Assembly (NCBI GenBank): GCA_977020255.1 | Contig: CDROCS010005030.1 | Span: 1-54,368 of the forward strand | Source of the DNA: Obrimoposthia wandeli | Taxonomy: Eukaryota | DNA length: 54,368 bases | Direction of reading: 5' to 3' | The notes under the pieces: model-generated | Told to the model about the DNA's origin: nothing | The model's input: only the letters and a program-made list of their open reading frames with translations | Databases searched by the model: none | Part shown: positions 6,491 through 54,368 of the stretch, piece after piece | How the letters are laid out: every line of letters begins with the position of its first letter | Numbering within the stretch: position 1 is the first letter of the stretch | Position numbers and translations under genes: made by a program

Positions 6491-9400
6491 ACTGTGATCG
6501 AAGGATGTCTCAGTCTTACAAGTGCCGTTTTTATATAATTATTATTGTGTTAATAAATTAAAGTAAAATATATTATGATCTACGATTTTATGTTGTTAAA
6601 GTTTTTATTTCTACTAAATTGTGAAATTTATTTTCAGGTATATTTTTTGTTTTAAAATCTACATTTTGTAATAACTATTTCAACAATGCTCAGATACATC
6701 TAGGACTAGTGCTACTACTAATACCATCGATTGTAAATATGCTTTATATTTAGTGATACTTATAAAACCAAATATTGTATAAGTGTATTATGTCTCATAT
6801 TTGAGCATTTCAAAAAACAATTTGCTAAATGAGTACATTAATTTGATCAAATAAATACACTATATTTCAAGATACTAAAAATATTCAAAATAATCAAGCA
6901 ATATATTTATTTTATGGAATCAATATTTGAATATCATCCCAATATTGGAGAGAAATTAATGATTGACTATTACTTCAATTGTGAAAATAGTCGAATTTTA
7001 GATCATATTACAATTAGTTACATGCATTATTTGTGACATATTTCCTCATAATATGTAACATACACAGTGACAATGTAATCCACGTCTGATAAATATGAGT
7101 AATGTCATAAAATAATGGCTAGTAAGTATGATACAAGTGAACATGAATGTTTAATCAAGTAGTTGTGGAAACTAATCTTCCCGCGGTTAAACTTGCAAAA
7201 AATGTTATAAAATAATGACTAAGACCATTTGTGATTAAAAGAATGTATTTTCATATTTACTATTATAAATAATGGTTAACAACTATGATTGTATTTCAAT
7301 TCATATCACATTAAACTAGTCTTGGCAACTTTTTTCATAGTTACACACATTATCATAAGATACTCAATATCATTGTATTTCAATTGACTTATTCGGCAAA
7401 TAATTTTTTTGGAACTAATTTTGGTATGGTTACACACATTGTCATAATTTAACGGATGACAACTCTAATTTTATTTCAATCAACTTAACCCATAACTCTT
7501 GCAGTTCTGATAAAGTAAAAAAACAGTATATTAAGATTACATTTAAAAAGAAGAATAATAAGTCTTTTAAACGTCTTGGCCCTTGCAAGTTTGACCAAGA
7601 TCAAACAAAGCCCATCAAATGTAACTTTAAAAGTATATAAATCATTTTTTATGAAGATTTTGACCCTTGAATGAAAACTTTCGAGGAATCACCTTCAAAG
7701 AAGCACTTTCAAAGCTCCATGGACTAAAGTGACCTCAAAAGCTCATGTATATTATAGTAAATGTCAACACAGTAGACGTTTGACAGATGATGAGTCATCG
7801 ATTTGTTTAAAAGGGTCATGCCATAAAAGAAACCGAGCTTTCTATCAGACGTCTTGCGTGAGTTTCGAGAAAAAAAGAGTTTGACTACATTTTTGATCAG
7901 TTTTAGAATTTTTCAAAAACTTGGTTATATATAGTGGTATATAATCGTCGTCATCCACTCAATATCACTGGATCTTTCATCTTATGTGTGTTCATGTACA
8001 CACACACTTATTGTTGTGGATATAATGAAAAATAATGTTAGTATAAATGTCCTTGATTATTATTTGTTTGAATTTCAACCAATATAAATAGACTTGTCAC
8101 TGGATCTTTCATCTTGTATGTGTGTGTGTGTGTTCATGTACACACACACACTTATTGTTGTGGATATAATGAAAAATATTGTTAGTATAATTGTCCTTGA
8201 ATTTTATTTGTTTGAATTTCAACCAATATAAATAGACTTGCTATAACGTATTTACTCGTGCGATATAACGCCCAATATCAATTTATGAGTTTAAAATGTT
8301 TAAATTTATATTTAAGTGTCACGTAAAAATATTTTTAATATTTGAATTTGTAGCGCAAAAATCAGTTTATTAAAACAAAAATGCAGAGAACAAGATTTAA
8401 ATGATTGCAGAGATACGTCCAGTAGATCATCAGTCTACTGCATTATCCTCTCTACCATCATGCTCTGATATCACGCGTTTAGAGATAAAAATAGTTTAAG
8501 ACAATATAAAAACATGGGGAATTATTTTAAGGAAAACATTCATTGTAAAACATATTATATTCCAAGTTTCATAGCATATGCAGAGTTTTAATCATCTTAG
8601 GCATCTATATTGTAAAGTGTTGGTTCGAGATTGTTGACTTATCGGACAATAGATTTTTAAACTCACTGAGTCATGACTTATGAGCTCAAATGTTAGACCG
8701 TATCATCAAGTGTTACAATACAAATGACTTGACTTTTGACCTGAACTGATAACGGTCCAACATCCGAGCTCATGACTAAAGGGTCTAATGAATCAATGAG
8801 CTCAAATTGACACTTTACACTACTAAATATATTTATAAAACTCATCATTTATTCAGTAATTCTACAAAAGAAAGTTTGGAAATGTTTTTGCTGACAACTA
8901 ATGACTACTTGCTTACCATCAGATCAATGCAAACATATACTCTTTGACATTAGTCCGTATGTATGTTCCTTAATTTCTTGAGATGGTATAAAAAGAGTGG
9001 TTTTGAAATATTTCGACATTCTACAATATACTTACAACTTGGATCTTAATTTTCTGTGAAACCGAATTTTATTTTCACCAATCGTATGTGTGTTTGACCT
9101 AACAAAATATGAAAGCTCTTAAAAGTATTAGTTACATATTTTATATACTATTTTTTAAATTACCTATTTATTCTAAAACAAATTGAGTAACAAAACGTTT
9201 ACAACTCGTATTCATTATTTTAAATATTTATATGATTTTTCCCGTTTGTTGTTTATTTAAAGTAAGAAAATACCTACAAAAAAATAAAACATTTATTTAA
9301 AAACGATCCTTCAATGACCATATCGAATTTTTTAATAAATGTTAATATATCAGATAAATTGAAATTATTTACATTTTGTAAATAATTCAATTAAATCTAT

Positions 9401-41337: not shown

Positions 41338-42109
41338 ACTGTGATCGAAGGATGTCTCGGTCTAACAAATGCCGTTTTTAATATAATTATTATTGTGTTA
41401 ATAAATTAAACTAAAAATATATTACGATCTACGATTTTATGTTGTTAAAGTTTTTATTTCTACTAAATTGTGAAATTTATTTTCAGGTATATTTATTGTT
41501 TTAAAATCTACATTTTGTAATAACTATTTCAACAATGCTCAGATACATCTAGGACTAGTGCTACTACTAATACCGTCGATTGTAAATATGCTTTATATTT
41601 AGTGATACTTATAAAACCAAATATTGTATAAGTGTATTATGTCTCATATTTGAGGATTTCAAAAAACAATTTGCTAAATGAGTACATTAATTTGATCAAA
41701 TAAATACACTATATTTCAAGATACTAAAAATATTCAAAATAATCAAGCAATATATTTATTTTATGGAATCAATATTTGAATATCATCCCAATATTGGAGA
41801 GAAATTAATGATTGACTATTACTTCAATTGTGAAAATAGTCGAATTTTAGATCATATTACAATTAGTTACATGCATTATTTGTGACATATTTCCTCATAA
41901 TATGTAACATACACAGTGACAATGTAATCCACGTCTGATAAATACATACTTAATCAAACATGAGTAATGTCATAAAATAATGAGTAGAGAGATGTGTCCC
42001 CTTCCGGCCACCCCCCCTCTTAGCGAAAACCGATAATTTTTTTTTTTTTGGGCGGAAATTTTAAATACATACTATAATACTTAATTTTTCCAAGGTCAAT
42101 GTGAAAAGT

Positions 42110-42470
42110 AGGTCAAATTTTGTTATAGTACACATGATTTTTGAGGGTTAAATTCATATTTATGTCACTTTATGCTATAATACGGCTGTTATTAGGTGAT
42201 TTTGGTCTAAATTTATATGTTTTTGTTTAAACACATAAATTTTTATGCCCACAAATTTAAAAACATACTACAACACGTATATTTTTCAAGATAATTATTA
42301 ATGAAGGTCACATTTTGTTATAATACACATGATTTTGAGGGTTAAATTCATATTTATATCACTTTATACTATAATACTTCTGTTTTTAGCGGATTTTACT
42401 CTAAAATTAGATGTTTTTGTTTAAACACATCAATTTTTATGCCCGCAAATTTCAAAACATACTATAACAC
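42110..42470. repeat. Diverged ~195 bp direct duplication in subterminal region
   Basis: aggtca.attttgttata.tacacatgatttt(t)gagggttaaattcat... occurs at ~42110 and ~42305. Confidence 0.85.
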
Positions 42471-42471
42471 T

Positions 42472-42726
42472 AGAACTCAATCACTTGATATTAATCAAAA
42501 TGTGTTAATCTTTATTAAATCCAGAACTCAATAACTCGACTTTAGTCAAAATATGTTAATCCATATTAATTCTAGAACTCAATCACTCAATATTAATCAA
42601 AATATGTTATTCTTTATTAATTACAGGACTCAATCACTCGATTGAAATTCAAATATGTTAATCCATATTAATTTCAGAATTCAATCATTCGATTGAAAAT
42701 CAAAATATGTTAATCCATATTAATTC
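42472..42726. repeat. 5 x 51 bp tandem repeat
   Basis: Units beginning agaactcaat (or a variant) start at 42472, 42523, 42574, 42625 and 42676. Confidence 0.92.
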
Positions 42727-43763
42727 CCCGCAGTGACTTGATGATCTTCAGATTGTTCTTTCTTCGATGAAGTTATTTTGACTCAATAACAAGCTCCAAG
42801 ACTGAATTTGGATTGGACCTATGAGTCTATGAATCTCGAGTCCGGAACTGGTGTCTATACGCCGAAGATTCTCTTTTTGATGGACTGTAGGCTTCCTGTC
42901 TTTGTTGATTATTCTATCAATGTGTTCTCGGACAGGTTTCCGTATACTGACATCATTGAATTCTATAGAAGTGATATGATAGAAGTGAGGAAATTGAGGA
43001 TTAGGATTAGGGTTAGGGAAACATATTATAGAGAAAAAATCGGGTTACGGTACTAAATTATTGAGATTAGGGGAAAGAGGTGAGTATATTATGGAAATAA
43101 CTTAGAGTCATTTGTAATAAAGGAGTGAACAACTTTGACTAACATGAAATCTATTATTCTTTTCAATATATGGATCAATAAATAAGTTATTGAAAGTGGG
43201 TCATTCCACGGTCATTCCAGCTATACAATATTCATACTTTTCATGATTATATGGAGAAATTAGGGTTGGGTTAACATGGGTAATAAATTATATTAGTATT
43301 TTGACAAATATGAATCATTTTGACGATTATATGAATAATTTTCACGATTATATGAATAATTTTAACAAATATGAATACATTTGATGAGTGAATTAGGGTT
43401 TGGGGGAACATAGTATAGTAATATGTTAGAGATAATTAGGGTTTTGGGGAAGATATTTCTTCTTCAACAGAATCATCTTCTCTGGAATCAGTCTCATCTC
43501 CAGAATCAGTCTCTTCACCGACACTAGTCTCTTCTTTAGAATAAGTCTCCGACACTAGTCTCTGACACCAGAGCTCATCCAGGACCCATAAATGTAGTGA
43601 GATAAGCAATCAGATACTAGGTTTGATATAAACTAAAGATGTTTAGTCATATATCAACGATGACAAATATTAAAATCTCCAAGAACATCCCTGAAAAAGC
43701 TGCTCCAACATTAGCAAGAAGAATATTAGCAAACAACTATTTCCCGATGTATCGAATATTAAC

Positions 43764-44159
43764 TTGAAACATGAAATTGTATTGAAGGAACTAGAGAAAC
43801 CCGAATATCAACCAAGTTATCAATATTTGGGATGGGAGATGAATTTTCTCAAGAGTCCAGTAATATATCTATTATCCGATTCTGTCAAGTTATCAAAGTC
43901 AAAATTCGATTATATAATCAATGATATTAGTGAACAAGATATTGAACAACTCAATCATATCTTACATGAATCAGGTACTGGGTATAAGATCCATACTAAT
44001 TCAATGATGATGCGAGCAGATGAAAGGATTTTTACTGAATACTATCAAGCTAACCAAGAAAAATGCTATATCTCAATTTCAATTCAAGGATACAAGATAA
44101 AACGAGATGGATGTTTAAAACCAATTTGGAAATTTACAGAAGGAACTATTATGTCGTAA
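43764..44159 (+). CDS. Hypothetical element-encoded protein (131 aa from TTG; 5' part probably frameshifted from ATG ~43659)
   Basis: This is the longest non-repetitive ORF in this part of the element, with protein-like composition. No family was securely recognised. Confidence 0.4.
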   Translation: MKHEIVLKELEKPEYQPSYQYLGWEMNFLKSPVIYLLSDSVKLSKSKFDYIINDISEQDIEQLNHILHESGTGYKIHTNSMMMRADERIFTEYYQANQEKCYISISIQGYKIKRDGCLKPIWKFTEGTIMS

Positions 44160-44599
44160 AATTTCTATTCTGCCACATATTTTTAATGCTTCAGGGATAG
44201 ATGGTCTTTATTAATTTAGGGATTTAAAGTGATTGACCAATCAGATGAGGGTATATTCAAGTGAATATTCAAACAGGTTCGGGGAAATATGAACAATGAC
44301 GAAAAATATCAAACTCTGCTTCTTCAATTGCTTTCGAGCAACTCGACAGAGCAACTCGACGATTGAAACCATTATACTTTGTCTCAATATGATGATGATA
44401 AGGTTTCTTATATTTCCCCATTAACCCTAACATATATTCCCCCCTCACCTTAAAATACTAATAAAACATCGATATCCAAAAAGTATTAAGATATGAGTTT
44501 TCACGGTCAAATCTGGGAATTCGACCTATCAGTTTTTATAAAATATCCCATAAAGTTGCTCTATAAATGATATTTCCCCTAATTGAATCAAAATTACTA

Positions 44600-46030
44600 T
44601 AGTCAACGTACATCGATATCCGTAAATTACCTGAGAACCTCTATGAATATCATATTAGTCTACGTACACCAACGTATTCCTGAATTATTAAATATGTCTG
44701 AAAGACAACTTTGTCAGTACACCAATATTCCTTAATTATTCAATATTAATCACCTAAATTATTCAGCGTACATTGATATTCTCTAATTATTTCTTATTCT
44801 GCCTTATATTTTATGAAGCTTCGAGTTAAGATATTGATGTGAGTGTTCCCTATTATTATTATATGGCTTCACCATCAGGTTCTGACTAGCTCTATTTTAC
44901 CTTCGGGTTCTGGCTCTAAGACTAGCTTTAGAATTCTCACTGTACTGTGAATGCATAGAATACCGTTCCACTTTGCTTAATTGATATTATTTAAACTATA
45001 TTCGTTCAAAGTCAACTGGATATAAGTCAATATGATAGTCTGTACACCAATATTTCCAAATTATTAACTATCTGAAAGACATTGTAAAATAATTTCATTA
45101 AAGTCTCCACACTAATATTGCTAACTATCTGAAAGACATCGTAAATTAATTGTTATTAACTGTTTGAAAAATATTGAAACTTAATTTCATGATAGTCTGT
45201 ACACCAATATTAACTATCTGAAAGACACCGTAACTTAATTAATATTATTCTCATAATAGTTAGTATACACCAATAATTTCCTAAACATTCAGTAAATATC
45301 CATAATTTCAATAATTTCCTAAAACCATAGAAAATATCCATAATAGTGTACGTACATCAATATTCTCTTCTTATGCGACATTAATTATTTAAAGACCACG
45401 TAAATTATCGGCGTACACTATCGATAATTTTCCTAAGACCGTGTAATATTTCCCAAATTGATCTAATAATAGTTAGTGTACAGCAATATTTCCTATGACC
45501 ACGTTAATATTTCCTCAAATTAATACCCTGTGTACATTAATATATCTCCAAATTAATACTCTCTGTAAATCAATATTATTGAATTTTTCAACATTGAATT
45601 CCTAAGACCAGGGAAATACTCTGAGTACACAAATATTATAGAATGGTCCAACATTGAACCCAAAGACCATGTAAATATACACCAAATTAATCTCATAATA
45701 CTCTATGTACACTAAATTAATATCAAAATAGTCTGCGTACACCAATAATAGCAAGTTATTGAACATTTATTTCCTTAGACCACGTAAATGATCATCAAAT
45801 TACTCTGTGTACACCAAATTATTGAACATTGAAATCCAGAGACCATGTAAATTTACCCTAAATGAATAACAAATTATACTGTATACATCAAAATATCAAA
45901 TTTAGAACATTTATTTCCTTAGACCATGAAAATATTATTAAAATTAATATCATAATACTTTGAACATTTATTTCCTAAGACCACGTAAATTTACCCCAAA
46001 TGAATAACAAAATAGACTGTGTACACCAAT
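44600..46030. repeat. Degenerate minisatellite field (gtacaccaat, aagacc(a)cgtaa, ttgaacatttatttcc, aactatctgaaagaca motifs)
   Basis: About 15 gtacac/gtacat-type motifs occur at irregular 50-150 bp spacing, plus about 9 aagacc motifs between 45390 and 45990. Confidence 0.75.
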
Positions 46031-46041
46031 AATCATTCCAG

Positions 46042-47066
46042 GTATTAATGGTACATATCAAGGGATCTGTATTCGCTTCATTTGATTCAATGCAGCTTTT
46101 GAATTCCGGGTCTCACTGCAAACTTGGTTTCACTTTTTGCACCCATTCTGTCTTCCCACCGCATATTGTCAGCGGCAGCGCATCTTCCCTTTATATGGCT
46201 CATGGCTGTATCAAAGACTGCTCTCCGCACCATCATTACGTCCCTTCCTCCTATCTGGGATACGATGATAACTCCAGCCCATCACCAGCAGCTTAGCCGA
46301 GAAGATGTGGCTTCAGAGGGGTGCACGTCCCTATGGGACTAAGCATGCTCATCTTACATGAAGATGGACGTGTACCAATGCTGACGTCTTCACGGCTTTC
46401 CGGCTCAAGGCTCTCTCTGACGATGGGCTGAGCCTCTGAACTTCTTCCAGTATACCCGGTAAGAATTATTATTATTATTTTAGCATAATTCATGTTTTTG
46501 CATCATGTGCATCTTTTGCAAATATTTACAAATTATTGCAACTATTTGCAACTTTTTGTCTTTGTTATTATTAATAATAATTATTTCCATTTCAGGCTTG
46601 ACTTTCGCTAGCGCGTTCAAGTCGCTGCTTATTCCAGAGGTCAATTCAGTACCTTCTCGGATTCCAACTACTCCGATCACCATAACCTCTACTCCTGCGT
46701 CTCCGATCACCATATCGTCTACTCCGACTCCTGCGTCTCCGATTCCTGCTCCCATCAATACTACTCCGAGTCCTGCTCCCATCAGAGTCGATCTCATACA
46801 GGACCCGGAGATGTACCAGATGTTCCGCGAGGGTATTCGAGGAGGAATGACCTTCGTCAATACGCACAAGACGGATGCGGGACCAGGTTCGGAACTACTA
46901 TATATTGACGTGAACAACTTGTATGGGTGGGCAATGTCTCAATTTTTACCTTGTGGGGATTTTTCATGGGTAACGGATCGGGTAGAACTCGACTCCATAT
47001 TAACTTCCTTCGCGAGTATTGACCTCTCTAAAAGTAGTTACGCTCATCTTTTGGAAATAGATTTAT
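46042..47066 (+). pseudogene. polB: Protein-primed family B DNA polymerase (Polinton-type pPolB), frameshifted, intron-containing, 3'-truncated
   Basis: Motifs occur in the expected order across frames: IRFIDS (~46071), GIFP (~46180), AEKMW..GCTSLWDY (~46300-46342), YMKMDVYLLADVF..FR (~46356-46400, best read with the inverted copy), DGLEPLNFFSIPGL, IRVDLIQDPEMYQMFREGIRGG (~46782-46847), LYIDVNNLYGWAMSQFLPCGDFSWV (motif A, ~46898-46975) and LLEIDL. Confidence 0.88.
46459..46595 (+). other. Spliceosomal GT-AG intron (137 nt, phase 1) in pPolB
   Basis: The donor is CCG|GTAAGA and the acceptor TTTCAG|GC. The interior is very AT-rich between GC-richer exons. Splicing gives ccc g|gc ttg = P-G-L. 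Confidence 0.8.
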
Positions 47067-47105
47067 AGTAGGTAGAAGGATGGAGTCTAGATCACTTGAC
47101 CCCCC

Positions 47106-47228
47106 CTAAAGGGTGTCACACCATAAGGATGTCTTGCCACACCATACGGGTATATGTTGCCTCACCGGAGGTGAGGCAACATATACCCTCATTGTGTGGC
47201 ATGACATCTATGGTGTGACACCCTTTAG
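47106..47228. other. 123-bp near-perfect palindrome/hairpin
   Basis: ctaaagggtgtcacaccata pairs with tatggtgtgacaccctttag (20 bp perfect). gggtatatgttgcctcacc pairs with ggtgaggcaacatataccc (19 bp perfect) around a 3-nt GGA loop at 47167-47169. Confidence 0.95.
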
Positions 47229-47233
47229 AGGAA

Positions 47234-47264
47234 GGGAGGGGGTGGGGAGGGGGTAGGGGAGGGG
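47234..47264 (+). other. G-quadruplex-forming tract
   Basis: GGG A GGGGG T GGGG A GGGGG TA GGGG A GGGG gives six G-runs with 1-2 nt loops. Confidence 0.8.
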
Positions 47265-47274
47265 TCATTAGTGA

Positions 47275-47629
47275 TGTGGACTCCACCTCTTCTTTGATGA
47301 TACACTACTATGGAAGGGTCGAGTGGCTTAGTCTCCACCCTTCTTTTGAGATATACCACTATAGAAGGGTCAAGTGGCTTAGTCTCCACCCTTTCTTTTT
47401 GTGATCTAGTCTCCACCCTTCTTTTTGGTTAACCACTAATTCAAAGGGCCGGGGCAGTGGCTTAGTCTCCACCCTTCTTTTTGTGATCTAGTCTCCAATT
47501 TCTTCAACTTTTGTGGTCTAGTCTCACCCTTCTTTTTGTGGTCTAGTCTCCACCCTTCTTTTTGGCTAACTACTAATTCAAAGGATCAAGTGGCTTAGTC
47601 TCCACCCTTCATTTTTGTGGATCTAGTCC
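47275..47629. repeat. Minisatellite with core tagtctccacccttctttt (~8-10 copies, 25-55 bp spacing)
   Basis: The core recurs near 47330, 47380, 47408, 47464, 47489, 47519, 47545 and 47596. It is mirrored at ~53095-53420. Confidence 0.9.
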
Positions 47630-48776
47630 ATAATGAAAAAATTTAGGATAAAGTTCACTTATCAGTTAAGAAATGTGGTTTTTAACACACACATACAATT
47701 ATTTTATGTGAAATTTAGAATTAAAGTTCACTCTTATGAGTTATGAACACATGCAGAATTCACACACATACTATTCTATATGAAATTTAGATCAAAGTTT
47801 TTTCCAGGCTTACACATTTATAGAATTATGATAAATTTCTTTTAAATAACTAATTATATATTAAAAATAAAAAAATAAAATAAGAAAGAAGTCAGAGAAT
47901 AATACAAAAATTAAATTACATTTATTATGTAATTTCATAATATCATCTTCAAACTTAAGTGAATAACATAGGTAGGTAGATGTAGCACTTCTGGCACAAA
48001 GAACCCCCCTCCCCCCGAGGACAAAATTTTTTAAGGTCAAGTCAAAAATGTAGGTCAAATTTTTTGATGAGGACAAAAACTTTAGGTCAAATTTTGAAAT
48101 TTGCGCGAAATTTTTTAAAAATGTTTGAAATTTCGATGAAAATTTTGAAATTTGCGCAAAATTTTTGAAATTAGCGCGAAAATTTTTGAACTCAAATTTT
48201 TTATGACAGATGTAGGTCAAATTTCTCCCGAGTACACATGATTTTTATTTAAATTCATGAGGACAACCCTAAGGCTCACGATGAGGACAAGATGTAGGTC
48301 ATGAGGTCAAGTCAAGTTAAGGTCAAGTTAAGGTCATGATGAGACAATGTACTTTAAGGTCAACTTAAGGTCATGATGTCAAGTAGAGGACAACTTAAGG
48401 TCATGGTGAGGTCAAAAAAGATTCTATTTTAGTAACATACTTAAAATCTATATCTATCTAACAAAAAAAGACAGTCACGCATCTATATTGCAAATTTTGT
48501 ATCTTTATGTAATCAATAAAATATCGCCTTTATACATGTATATATATATATGTGTGAGTGTCTAACAAAGACGTACTGCATCTATATTGCAATGTAATTA
48601 CAAAGTTTTTGGTCGGTTTGCTAAAAAGTTTAGTTTTGGACCAAGATAGGCACTAGGATCCTTTTCAAATGCTTTTGTAAGTTTATCTAATTTTACAAAA
48701 ATATCAAGCATACCATCCCCTTTTTGCACTCGTTTCTGATTTTGCTTATGCTGTGTAGTCTCTCTTTTCCCCCTTC

Positions 48777-49411
48777 TATAATGTAGGTGTGTAGACTGTG
48801 TAGAACCGAACTACTATATGCTTGTGCTGTGTAGGTCTCCTTATGGATATTTAAGAAAATAGAATAAGAAGGGGGGAAAGAGAGACTATGCTATTGTTAT
48901 CAAGCATATAGGAGTTGCATAAATCTATTTATAGTAACAGTATTATATAGCATTAAAGTTATATAGGAGTTAGGAAAATCATTTATAGTAACAGCACATC
49001 GAATTTTATTTTAAGTTCCTTTTCGAACATTTTGTATTTGCTGAACGTTTTTTGTTCTTTTTTCAGTTATAATGTAGGTGTGTAGACTGTGTAGAATTGA
49101 CATTTATATGCTTGTGCTGTGTAGGTCTCCCTTATGGATATTTAAGAAAATAGAAAGAAGGGGAAAAAGAGAGACTACACAGCATAAGCATATAGGAGTT
49201 GCATAAATTATTTATAGTAACAGCCAGGTATAGCACAGCACAAGCATATAGAGTTAGGGAAAAATCTATTTATAGTAACAGCAGCGAATTTTATTTTGTT
49301 CTTTTTCGAACATTTTGTATTTAAGCTTAATGTTTTTTGTTCTTTTTCAGTTATATATGTAGTGTGTAGACTGTGCAGAATGGAACTACTATATGCTTGT
49401 GCTGTGTAGGT
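48777..49411. repeat. ~290 bp tandem repeat (2.2 copies) with internal inverted repeats
   Basis: tataatgtaggtgtgtagactgtg starts at 48777, 49068 and 49352. atatgcttgtgctgtg and cacagcacaagcatat are reverse complements. Confidence 0.88.
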
Positions 49412-49890
49412 GTTGCCTGTTGACTCTAATTTTGTCGGCGATGCATGCTTTATTACATCAAGAATTTTAAAGGAAATCTTAAAGGTTAATTGCATTTATC
49501 TGTATAAAGGACCAGGCAATACTGGGAAATCAATGCTTATCCAAATCCTTTACCGTTTTGCATGTGAGTATAGGGTATTTGCCCATATGCACAGCAATAG
49601 CCGTCTGGCTACAGATTTGATAATAAATAACAAAGACACTAACTAATAAAGACACTGACTAACAAAGATACTGATTAATAAAAACACTGATTAAAGATAA
49701 AGTATTTGAATAAAATTTACACATTATGATAACGATTAAAATACGTATTTGATGAAGCATAGTCATTAGGAGCAGCAATAGTCCGTTTAGCTTTACCAAG
49801 ATTTGAAGCAGCAGTAACACCAATCGAATGAAAGATAAAATGCAATAACAATGCAAGCAGCATGTAAACTACCATAATGACCATATACTA
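49410..49890 (+). pseudogene. SF3 (parvovirus NS1/papillomavirus E1-like) helicase remnant
   Basis: Walker A lies in the context VNCIYLYKGPGNTGKSML (GPGNTGKS 49509-49532). In another frame there is a possible Walker B YVFDEA (~49742-49759) and TPIE..K...Q..KLP (motif C region, ~49815-49880). Confidence 0.5.
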
Positions 49891-50421
49891 AAATCTTACC
49901 ACCATTTTCGATAGTTTTGCGACTATATTATTAGTCTGTTTTTATAATACTTCATTATTGTTTCTCCTAATTTTGAGTTTAAACAAAGACAGAAGTATAT
50001 TTCAATTTCTTATAAGATATTTTTATCCAGTATAGATGTATTGATTATATGAGTGAAATTGGAATTTCAAAAGATTAGGTTTTATCAAACCCATCTCTAT
50101 AATTACCAATATATATAATTGATTTACTAAAATCTCACTCATATCGCTGTTTTGTTTAACTTTTTCTACATTGTTGAGTAAATCTAAAGCACTAAACAAA
50201 CTATCAAAAAGATGGGTCATGTACTATTTCCATACTCGAAGCATGAGCTATTATGGTTCCATAAAAGCCAAAAAGCATTTAAAAAAAATCTATCCGTTCC
50301 CTTATCTTCAAATACCTGGATTCATAATACCTTTCTTTTCTTCTGTCGTCACTTCATCAATAGTTTCTTCTCTTCTATAACCCGTGTTGTTGCTAAGTTG
50401 CTGGTGGTGATGAATGTTACT

Positions 50422-50474
50422 GGCGATGGTGTTGGCGATGATGTTGTTGGCGATGATGTTGTTGGCGATGATGT
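50422..50474. repeat. 15-bp repeat ggcgatgatgttgtt (~3.5 copies; TTSSP-like on minus strand)
   Basis: Directly visible. Confidence 0.85.
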
Positions 50475-51810
50475 ATAGTTGTTAAGTTACGATGATGTTG
50501 TTTGGTGCTGAATTGATTTTCTCCATTTTAATAATTCCGGTCAATTTAGTCTATGAGTATTAAAACAAGCGCTGATTTCATTGAGCATCAGGCTTCATCA
50601 TATGATTTGATTGAGTATTATTCAAACCTTCCATTGTACTTAAGATCTCAAGCGTAAAATGTAGCGATGACGCAAATCATAAAGAGTTAAAAATAAAACT
50701 ACACATAAATATTACCTGCTGATTATTTTTCCCAATCATGCCAATATGAACAACTGAAGCAAGATCTTTAATGCATCCCGGTCCCTCTTTGTTCAATAAT
50801 TTATCCATTTATGATAAAGCAAATCAAATATTGGTTTATAAATCCATGAAAATCTAGAGTTTTAGACCAGTTAAACCATTTGCAACATTACAACGTTTGC
50901 AACTATTTGCAAGTAATGACATGTGATGTCTTTTGTTTTATATAAACAATATTTTGATAATGATTTTATTGAAATGGATAATCAAAATAATCAAAATAAT
51001 GAAAAGTGAGCTAGTACATATATAGGTTCTGGTAGTAATTTATATTCTTAATATGAATTATAATAGAAATAATCAGAGAAAATATTAATCCATCAAGTCA
51101 ACAATAACAAGTCCTACCGCGCGTAACCGAAGAACGTGAGCCCTTTTTAAGGATATGATCATCATTGTATTTGATAATGTTAACTAATTGAGAATTAATC
51201 GATTTCTGCAAACAAGAATATTTGTGGACTAATTCAGAATCGAGCTTTTGGCGATAGTCAATTGAATATTTCAATTTATAATTACTGGCGAATTTCGAAA
51301 GTTATATCAACCTATGCATATTATTATGTGATAGATGCACTTTTGAAGAAAGCTCATAACTATAATTTATTTTCCTGTCAACATCGAGCCGCTTAAATTT
51401 GTTCTGCGGGAAATATCAAATTGACTTCTGTGGATAAAGAGAGAATCAATATCTTCTTGACCTTCACTCCGGGAATCAATCCATGCGCTTCAGAAAACAA
51501 ATTCGGTAACAAAGGATCAACTGCCACTTTCACATGAGAATGGAAACAATATAATAGTTAAGCTAGAATATTATCTCAATCAGAATTCATGTGATGTGAT
51601 CAAAGCCCAGTGGATTGAAACTCCATATGGAAAAATAATTGATGCTGTTAGAGAAAGTTTTTGACTAATAAATTTTCTTGTGTCTTTATTTGTATTATTT
51701 ATATATATTATTTATTATTATATTATAAACAATAGTGATACTTTAATATTTTGCATATGTGAAAAATGACTAAAAAAAAACTACTAAATCATTAAAGACT
51801 AAGGTTATTA

Positions 51811-51860
51811 AAAAGACTATGAGTAAAAAGACTATGAGTAAAAAAGACTATGAGTAAAAA
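51811..51860. repeat. 3 x ~16 bp repeat aaaagactatgagta
   Basis: Directly visible. Confidence 0.85.
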
Positions 51861-51981
51861 GAAAATCATGGAAGGTTTGGGTATTCATATGATGGCAGCA
51901 AATCTTTTAGGTAGATGGTTTGGTGGAGTGATAAAAAGCTTATAAAGCACAAAAAAGAATGGATTATTTGGAGAGGTATAC

Positions 51982-54368
51982 AAAAATCAGAAACGAGTGC
52001 AAAAAAAGGATGGTATGCTTGATATTTTTGTAAAATTAGATAAACTTACAAAAGCATTTGAAAAGGATCCAGTGCCTATCTTGGTCCAAAACTAAACTTT
52101 TTAGCAAACCGACCAAAACTTTGTAAATTACATTGCAATATAGATGCAGTATCTTTGTTAGACACATATATATATAAGGCTACGTATAAGAATAAATGCT
52201 AATATTTCCATTGATTTCATGCTAAAGATGATTTGCAATAGATGTGACGTCTTGTTAATAGATATAGATTTTAAGCATGTTAATAAAATAGAATCTTTTT
52301 GACCTTCTCACCATGATCTTTAAGTTGTCCCTTCATGACGTCATGACCTTTAAGCTGGACTTGAAAAGCACATTGTCCTCATCATGACCTTAACTTGACC
52401 TTTAACTCTGACTTGGACTCTCACAGAATCTACATCTTGTCCTCATCGTGACCTTGCTGTCCTTCTGCTGAATTTAAATAAAAAATCAAAATTCTCTCGA
52501 GAAATTTGGACTCCACATCTGTTGGCGTAAAAATTTGAAAGTTCAAAAATTAATTTCAATTTTAGCAAATTTCAAAATTTTCATCGAAATTTCAAACATT
52601 TTTAAAAAATTTCGCGCAAATTTCAAAATTTGACCTAAAGTTTTTGTCCTCATCAAAAAATTTGACCTACATTTTTGACTTGACCTTAAAAAATTTTGTC
52701 CTCGGGGGGGGGGGAGGGGGGGGGCTTTGTGCCAGAAGTGCTACATCTACCTACCTATGTTATTCACTTAAGTTTGAAGATGATATTATGAAATTACATA
52801 ATAAATGTGTTTAATTTTGTATTATTCTCTGACTTCTTTCTTATTTTATTTTTTATTTTAATATATAATTGAAGTTATTAAAGTTAGCCTATCATAATTT
52901 TATAAATGTAAGCCTGGAAAAAAACTTTGATCTAAATTTCATATATAGAATAGTATGTGTGTGATTACGTAATACATTCCTTAATTATAAGAGTGAATTT
53001 AGTTCTTAAATTACATAAAATAGTGTATGTGTGTGTTAAAAACCACATTTCTTAACGATAAGAGTGAATCCTTTATCCTAAATTCTCATTATGGACTGTG
53101 GATCACAAAAAAATGAAGGGTAGAGACTAAGCCACTCTGGATCCTTTGAATTAGTAGTTAGCCAAAAAAGAAGGGTGGAGACTAGACCACAAAAGAAGGG
53201 TAGACTAGACCACAAAAAGAAGGGTGGAGACTAGATCACAAAAAGAAGGGTGGAGACTAAGCTTACTTGGACTTCTTTGAATTAGTGGTTAACCAAAAAG
53301 AAGGGTGGAGACCAGATCACAAAAAAGAAGGGTGGAGACTAAGCCATTTGGACCCTTTCTATAGTGGTATATCTCAAAAAAGAAGGGTGAGACTAAGCCA
53401 CTCTGACCCTTTCATAGTAGAAGAAGGGTGAGTCCAACATCACTTCTGACCCCCCTCTACCCTCCTTCACTCCCTCCTCCTCCTTGGGCAGTGTCACACC
53501 ATAGTGAAGGCCTAAGTCATACCATGGGCCGCTCTCACCTCCGGTGAGGCAACATATACCTGCATGGTGGCAAGACATCCTTATGGTGTGACACCTTTAG
53601 GGGTCAAGGATTCAGACTCCATCCTTCTCACCTACTATAAATCTATTTCCAAAAAGATGAGCGTAACTACTTTAGAGAGGTCAATACCGCGAAGAAGCAT
53701 GGGTTTGTGCCTCTACCCGATCCGTTACCCATGAAAAATCCCCACAAGCAAAATTGAGACATTGCCCACCCATACAAGTTGTTCCTACGTCAATATAGTA
53801 GTTCCGAACCTGGTCCCGCATCCGTCTTGTGCGTATTGACGAAGGTCATTCCTCCTCGAATACTTCCTCGAACGAACATCTAAGTACATCTCCGTCCTGC
53901 AAGGAGTATCTGACTCCTTGATGGAGCAGGACTCGAGTAGTATTGATGGAGCAGGAATCGGAGACGCAGGAGTCGGAGAGATGATATATGGTGGATTTAG
54001 AGACGCAGAGTAGAGGTTATGGTGATCGTGGAAGTTGGAACTGAGAAGGTACTGAATTGACCTCTGAATAAGCAGCGACTTGAACGCGTTAGCGAAAGTC
54101 AAGCCTGAAATGGAAATAATTATTAATAATACAAAGACAAAAAAGCGTAAAATAGCGTTTATAAATAATTTGTAAATATTTGCAAAAAGATGTATTTATG
54201 ATGCAAAACATGAATTATGCTAAAATAATAATGGTCAATTTACCGGGTATACGAAGAAGTTCAGAGGCTCCAGCCCATCGTCAGAGAGAGCCTTGGAGCC
54301 GGAAAGCCGTGAAGACGTCAGCGAGCAGGTACACGTCCATCTTCATGTAGATGAGCATGTAGTCCCAT
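51982..54368 (-). repeat. Right arm of large inverted repeat
   Basis: It is the reverse complement of 46332-48743 and includes TIR, minisatellite, hairpin and pPolB segments. Confidence 0.95.
53637..54368 (-). pseudogene. polB: Inverted copy of pPolB fragment with the same intron (54105-54243)
   Basis: The minus strand reads DYMLIYMKMDVYLLADVFTAFR..., then GT...TTTCAG, then GLTFANAFK... and the GIRGG/YGWAMSQF region with several frameshifts. Confidence 0.82.

Follow-up and report, generated by a model that had tools for sequence, protein, structure and literature searches.

A clade-wide GT-AG intron, likely gained once and likely spliced by the host, in the protein-primed DNA polymerase gene of Polinton elements of Obrimoposthia wandeli

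Homology to protein-primed DNA polymerases (pPolB) on one contig of the 1.35-Gb Obrimoposthia wandeli assembly is interrupted by a short AT-rich segment with intron-like ends, which raises the question of what this interruption is and what it means for the element that carries it. The window analysed here is the whole contig (CDROCS010005030.1, or C5030; 54,368 nucleotides). The segment occupies positions 46459 to 46595 (137 nt) on the forward strand, begins with GTAAGA and ends with TTTCAG, and interrupts the conserved PG[L/M/F] motif in phase 1, inside its Gly codon. Its GC content is 0.212, compared with 0.492 at 46042 to 46458 and 0.478 at 46596 to 47066. Ends, length, and AT-richness agree with an earlier sequence-only reading of this DNA, which also correctly pointed to the same intron in an inverted copy (54243 to 54105 on the reverse strand, 139 nt, GTAAAT..TTTCAG) and to an ORF track that reads the intron as a false hydrophobic N-terminus, as is the case in the stop-to-stop ORF at 46484 to 47068. 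From comparative sequence analysis, we consider it highly probable that this is an ordinary host-type GT-AG intron, likely gained once in a nuclear-transcribed Polinton clade, likely spliced by the host, and obligatory since then, and that the window holds a non-autonomous relic.

The copy in the window is a dead, 5'-deleted, frameshifted fragment of a Polinton element. On the forward strand, the left end of the element (41983 to 43276, starting AGTAGAGAGATGTG) shares 98.7% identity with the left end of another copy, located on contig C1491, which has a 6-bp direct repeat on both sides. A 154-codon open frame of unassigned function follows (43695 to 44159); it had no convincing match in Pfam or Atlas and occurs in other element copies too, with a near-identical ORF on contig C2506. 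An AT-rich, partly repetitive segment (44455 to 46034), common to a 5'-deleted subfamily, then replaces the 5' part of the pPolB exon 1 found in full-length copies. The remnant of exon 1 (46035 to 46458) is frameshifted and covers the stretch from the exonuclease region's end to ...SIP-G at the intron, and the 5' part of exon 2 (46596 to 47066) holds the LTFASAFK block, a T/S/P-rich insert, and polymerase motif A, without motifs B and C. Exon 2 is cut at 47066 by a segment of unassigned strand (47067 to 53636) that starts with AGTAG, has AGTAG-like ends and inverted arms, and shows similarity in its middle portion to the left arm in full-length elements. Beyond it, on the reverse strand, lie the heavily frameshifted exon-2 part of the inverted copy (53637 to 54104), its intron, and its exon-1 remnant (54244 to 54368), which is cut by the contig end.

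Positions 46042 to 47066 had been read as a polymerase gene. The pPolB homology is real, but this is not a whole gene: it corresponds only to residues ~706 to 958 of a 1,312-residue uninterrupted homolog (P0001), which is 58% identical to the family in the C-terminal part. The start at 46042 is a deletion junction and not a second intron, because TTCCAG is coding at the same spot in full-length copies and the similarity of the window to those copies begins at 46035; the TTCCAGG at 46035 to 46042 is thus inherited coding sequence. The subfamily to which the window copy belongs starts at P0001 residue ~706, its members mostly share a frameshift near residue 745, and tblastn found no upstream pPolB exon for it. 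The joined peptide proposed from the window does not read in a single frame here, as its pieces DGL, EPLNFF, and SIPG are spread over different frames; in sister copies they form one block in a single frame. Compared with a sister copy, the exon-1 remnant carries 20 indel events, 17 of them frameshifting, versus 0 to 2 in eight other copies; its many 1-base indels may stem from decay or from assembly error. The part after the intron matches DNA_pol_B_2 with an E value of 9e-05, which is under the curated cut-off. In a sister copy (L002), exon 2 stays open past motifs B and C as far as the C-terminus. The window ORFs include none for an integrase, an ATPase, or a capsid protein, and the complete pPolB and core genes of an autonomous Polinton are absent from this frameshifted fragment.

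Several other features of the window were noted. Positions 1 to 41900, adjoining the left end of the element, form a tandem array of 4.5- to 6.1-kb units. Every unit carries a TFIIB-like ORF free of introns (six ORFs have 315 codons and two have 267, with Zn_Ribbon_TF and TFIIB matches), and 12 more partial or diverged matches lie elsewhere in the genome. The T/S/P-rich repetitive insert after the intron (46620 to 46790) spans about 55 codons in this family and differs in sequence in other lineages. Inverted arms of 2.5 to 4.6 kb with pPolB pieces extend past the element ends in the window (46333 to 54368) and on contigs C31, C99, and C2506 of the same assembly; because they run past these ends, the element flanks are inverted rather than direct repeats. 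The arms are either real long terminal repeats or assembly fold-backs.

The family was characterized through its other members. A DNA search with the window copy gave 3,600 candidates, the best 40 of which are 92 to 100% identical and, except for the window's own match, all end at window base 47066. An exact 20-mer across the acceptor occurs at 211 places in the genome (control, 0), so the family has at least 211 dispersed near-identical copies. In the same family, pPolB homology from the N-terminus was found on contigs C38, C67, C99, C900, C14, and C723. The element on C38 measures 15.5 kb between its AGTAGGGGGATGTG ends and is flanked by a CAAATT direct repeat. These AGTAG-ended terminal inverted repeats, with AGTAGGGGGATGTG at both element ends, are also present on C1988, C1408, C31, C99, and C900. 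Besides CAAATT on C38, 6-bp target duplications are CATACT (C1491), GTCTAA (C1988), and AACCAA (C1408), while on C31, C99, and C900 the two ends were found without a direct repeat.

On one strand, the gene order is ATPase, integrase, a 350-codon ORF, a major-capsid-like gene, a 170-codon ORF, and pPolB. The integrase matches rve (E value, 4e-14) with a weak chromo match, and the packaging ATPase matches Pox_A32 above the cut-off (E value, 5.5e-05). The 408-residue capsid-like protein had no Pfam match of its own; a feature score of 0.98 in the Atlas (222 of 256 shared) to a double-jelly-roll-like cluster, with PF21738 on 65% of its members, gives a lead to it as a double-jelly-roll-like major capsid candidate. 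The 350-codon ORF between the integrase and the capsid gene had no Pfam match, and from its position we take it to be a candidate minor capsid protein. For an Ulp1/adenain-like protease, PF00770 gave no match in the genome, where the controls were silent too, and none of the ORFs listed for one element was a candidate. In a full-length sister copy, each pPolB exon alone matches PF03175 (DNA_pol_B_2) above the cut-off, over the consecutive profile positions 7 to 159 and 202 to 389. With the exons of this copy read singly, what we take from motif patterns to be Exo I to III lie in exon 1 and Pol A to C in exon 2; exon 1 also holds an endonuclease-VII-like motif. The intron-bearing family is a Polinton/Maverick clade.

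This identity bears on the alternative, raised in the sequence-only reading, that the locus is a domesticated host polymerase gene. A host-type intron and purifying selection (described below) would suit such a gene. However, the family shows at least 211 exact acceptor matches and the clade 3,350 donor-type matches, its members have terminal repeats, 6-bp target duplications, and integrase and capsid-like neighbors, and many copies, including the one in the window, are broken. We give domestication almost no credence.

The elements carry further genes. On C38, a TBP-like gene lies within a Polinton (L053, 6765 to 7316; PF00352; E value, 3e-12) and has an apparent second intron of 39 nt (6931 to 6969, GTAAGT..TTTAG). 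Other cargo genes in the family are IAP (BIR plus RING) and dual-specificity phosphatase genes (L012, 7956 to 8978; L059, 4160 to 4894). The Polinton load of the genome is very large, with at least ~14,000 pPolB junction matches (3,350 plus 10,663) and several pPolB copies per 40 kb in the regions examined.

Within the family, the GT..AG ends are kept in 28 of the 29 copies examined. Intron lengths are 120 to 157 nt and fall into all three classes modulo 3 (6, 8, and 15 copies). The exception (L051, C723:169092-172107) has both dinucleotides changed (TT..CG); as the only match with a non-A base before exon 2 it had been a candidate intronless copy, which was rejected because the intron is present. 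Homologs do not align through the insert. Of 193 homologous proteins, 190 had a match at the intron site and 189 of these are continuous across PG[L/M/F], as are 89 of 93 environmental loci, although both sets favor uninterrupted genes, and the count of intronless relatives is inflated because protein searches favor uninterrupted ORFs. The other four environmental loci comprise two without coverage of the site, one that ends 8 residues past it, and one single segment with a short insertion. In the genome itself, 26 of the 150 exon-1 matches listed sit in open frames of 936 to 1,025 codons by hand count and none is longer, so none of those listed is the uninterrupted frame of an intronless gene. 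When the genome was searched with a degenerate pattern for clade-type junctions lacking the intron, there were likewise no matches.

Reading through the intron would not yield the full polymerase. For 17 of 18 introns, among them those of only 42 to 45 nt, the exon-1 frame meets a stop within 1 to 16 codons, and the 18th shifts the frame; an in-frame Met precedes exon 2 in 7 of these introns and is absent from 11. The seven with a Met would fit a split gene without splicing, in which exon 1 (terminal protein/exonuclease) and exon 2 (polymerase domain) are two genes with an AT-rich spacer between them and translation of exon 2 begins at a start of its own; adenoviruses, according to the accessible text of PMC11071308, have a separate terminal protein gene. 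However, the break splits a codon within a motif that nearly all homologs keep uninterrupted, GT and AG ends recur in five lineages, and the LTFASAFK block right after the AG is conserved even though most introns supply no in-frame Met. Two unspliced genes are therefore a very unlikely explanation.

How widely the intron occurs was examined across the pPolB genes of the genome. Five pPolB lineages carry a GT..AG intron at an identical phase-1 position, with lengths of 42 to 332 nt and GC contents of 0.10 to 0.25. The donors are GTTTGT, GTTAGA, GTTAGT, or GTAAGA, the first three of which depart from the usual GTRAG consensus, and the interiors are unalignable between lineages, with only short low-complexity matches. 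Genome-wide degenerate patterns gave 3,350 donor-type matches (control, 0) and 10,663 intronless-type matches (control, 4), counts that come from patterns of different strictness; for each pattern, the first 100 matches were listed. Since GGT TTG T might equally be coding sequence, 19 donor-type loci were examined individually. In 13, a motif search identified an acceptor with the L[TS]FA block following it in phase. The other six run on as AT-rich DNA in which no acceptor was identified by motif, and one of these has another element inserted. At L183 (C10:609900-615900), another element with a AGTAGGTAGATG-type end was seen ~30 nt inside the pPolB intron.

Trees were built on the region after the junction. 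With FastTree (19 intron-bearing, 12 own intronless, and 70 database rows, after six own rows with short segments were dropped), the intron-bearing rows formed one clade with a support of 100. The phylogeny with mapped intron state that had been suggested as a check was also run with IQ-TREE (13 intron-bearing and 26 other rows, rooted on a database protein); it placed the intron-bearing rows in one clade at 100/100 with one change of state. Since these lineages form a single clade among intronless relatives, one gain suffices, and one gain is simpler than many losses because three intronless lineages of the same genome are scattered elsewhere among the database proteins. The intron is old and clade-wide and, as judged from the tree, was likely gained once. 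In the databases searched, the same intron was not found outside this genome, where the best database identity is ~58 to 60% compared with 60 to 77% between the lineages here. Some database proteins begin just after the site, their clusters including longer members, and scans of viral_contigs found nothing. For an origin by tandem duplication of a CAG|GT proto-splice site, no trace was seen: CAG|GT stands at both junctions in one lineage, but intron ends are no closer to the neighboring exon ends than shuffles are (1 of 20 tests below 0.05).

Both exons evolve as coding sequence. Between intron-bearing lineages, amino-acid identity is 60 to 77% and pS is 0.69 to 0.88, with Nei-Gojobori dN/dS values, where finite, of 0.04 to 0.14 in both exons; these values are rough because synonymous sites are near saturation. 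In three closer subfamilies dN/dS is 0.07 to 0.10 at a pS of ~0.5, and in near-identical pairs, with few changes, it is 0.11 to 0.42. These ratios indicate that both exons are under purifying selection across the clade and that the split gene stayed functional. They also bear on the possibility that the insertion was inactivating and that the broken family then relied on intronless elements to spread, solely as their non-autonomous passenger. Possible helpers, the intronless clades, are abundant, and the subfamily of the window copy is itself a defective passenger of this kind. However, a dN/dS near 0.1 in both exons while synonymous sites are saturated is not expected of a gene that has been dead since the insertion, and we regard this alternative as highly improbable.

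A functional gene interrupted in this way would probably be spliced. The introns have major-class spliceosomal features, namely GT..YAG ends, a conserved phase, and a non-coding interior. Introns of groups I and II were rejected, as Rfam gave no match to a self-splicing intron, lengths go down to 42 nt, and the folding of 9 of 10 introns is no better than that of shuffled sequences. The host genome encodes Prp8, whose own gene carries AT-rich GT-AG introns of 710 and 209 nt. In four sequencing runs of unknown type (one sample, one study, contigs only), intron depth equals exon depth and there is no joint at the intron ends; they look like DNA and are silent on splicing. Host splicing is the simplest route to the enzyme because of the selection on both exons, the read-through stops, the missing Met codons, the presence of Prp8, and the lack of a self-splicing match, and we infer splicing by the host. 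The proposed sequence of events is that the element is transcribed in the nucleus, that the host spliceosome removes the intron as it would an ordinary host-type intron to give the full enzyme, and that the spliced polymerase then drives self-synthesis of the element. Since the polymerase motifs lie after the intron, splicing would be needed for replication. The intron would thus be a tolerated passenger that became obligatory, because a message that keeps it runs into a stop or a frame change ahead of the polymerase domain. Presumably, the window copy was either replicated in trans or persists as a relic. An intron-bearing Polinton-like lineage dependent on nuclear splicing had been proposed from the window, and the full-length elements, the fixed site in five lineages, the monophyly, and the purifying selection all favor that proposal, with splicing as its predicted step.

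The intron might also do more than be tolerated. It could act as a splice switch, with retention giving surplus primer protein and splicing giving the replicase, so that the host spliceosome gates replication of the clade; we think this unlikely. In regulated intron retention, a weak donor would leave part of the message unspliced and yield a stand-alone terminal-protein/exonuclease product that tunes the ratio of primer protein to polymerase. The site does divide all N-terminal domains from motifs A to C, non-consensus donors persist in most lineages, the stops come early, and a terminal protein is described at the N-terminus of Polinton pPolBs (accessible text of PMC11071308). However, early stops are expected by chance at 10 to 25% GC, and the intron interior has no conserved sequence. 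Nonsense-mediated decay may also remove retained messages. Moreover, the same genome contains clades that lack the intron, have some three times the number of junction matches, and do without such a device, and regulated retention is accordingly quite doubtful. If the splice-switch reading were true, the host spliceosome would gate the replication timing of a Polinton clade with thousands of copies.

With an ordinary, tolerated intron as the preferred reading, the locus has several implications. The intron is sequence evidence for nuclear transcription of the replicase by these elements. The locus contributes a single gain that can be dated, a gene with both exons under selection, and a copy number in the thousands alongside intronless clades of the same genome, and the intron-bearing and intronless Polinton clades together, with one gain on the tree, could serve as a test bed for intron gain and retention in a virus-like replicon. 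Polinton gene mining has assumed that 'they do not contain introns' (PMC10120064) or has required a minimum ORF of 900 aa (PMC10748475). Because mining uses prokaryotic gene callers or ORF-length filters, an intron-bearing clade would be read as truncated or dead and undercounted.

In the literature searched, which left Repbase, most subscription journals, and supplements outside its scope, no account described a Polinton pPolB with a fixed spliceosomal intron. Word look-ups in the accessible text of PMC12220804, 10.1101/2024.03.25.586562, PMC11296320, 10.64898/2026.10.13.758929, and PMC11131425 likewise gave no spliceosomal intron in pPolB. The closest known systems are the animal Polintons/Mavericks (Polintoviricetes; adintovirus-type elements with a PF03175-type PolB), which like the elements here have terminal inverted repeats, a 6-bp target duplication, and a length of ~15 kb, together with a pPolB with Exo I to III and Pol A to C, an rve integrase with a chromodomain, an A32-like ATPase, and a double-jelly-roll-like capsid gene. 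IAP cargo is also common to both (IAP homologs in the accessible part of PMC8502044). The difference is that the replicase here has a fixed intron, whereas the core genes of vertebrate Maverick/Polinton elements are described as intronless in the accessible text of PMC8097293, and a nematode Maverick has introns in cargo genes only, according to the available part of 10.1101/2022.07.12.499685.

Spliceosomal introns in other virus-like replicons differ from this one in age, distribution, or setting; the accounts that follow are those of the accessible portions of the papers cited. In the chlorovirus PBCV-1, the family-B polymerase gene a185r has one spliceosomal intron at a fixed site, in some lineages only (PMC7019647). 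That intron is 86 to 101 nt long and as conserved as the exons, compared with 42 to 332 nt and unalignable between lineages here, and its carrier is a giant lytic virus rather than an integrating Polinton. In mirusviruses, GT-AG introns in core genes are read as a sign of nuclear transcription (PMC12768974). These viruses belong to another realm and have many introns per genome, enriched in morphogenesis genes, and often lack the polymerase (PMC12768974); the elements here have one polymerase intron and the one seen in the TBP-like cargo gene. Dinoflagellate eupolintoviral elements, full-length ones included, bear introners, which are spliceosomal-type introns made recently by transposon insertion, mostly after integration and with ~25% in coding regions (PMC12166617). 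In contrast, the intron described here occupies one old site in five diverged lineages, with unalignable interiors between two exons that are both under selection.
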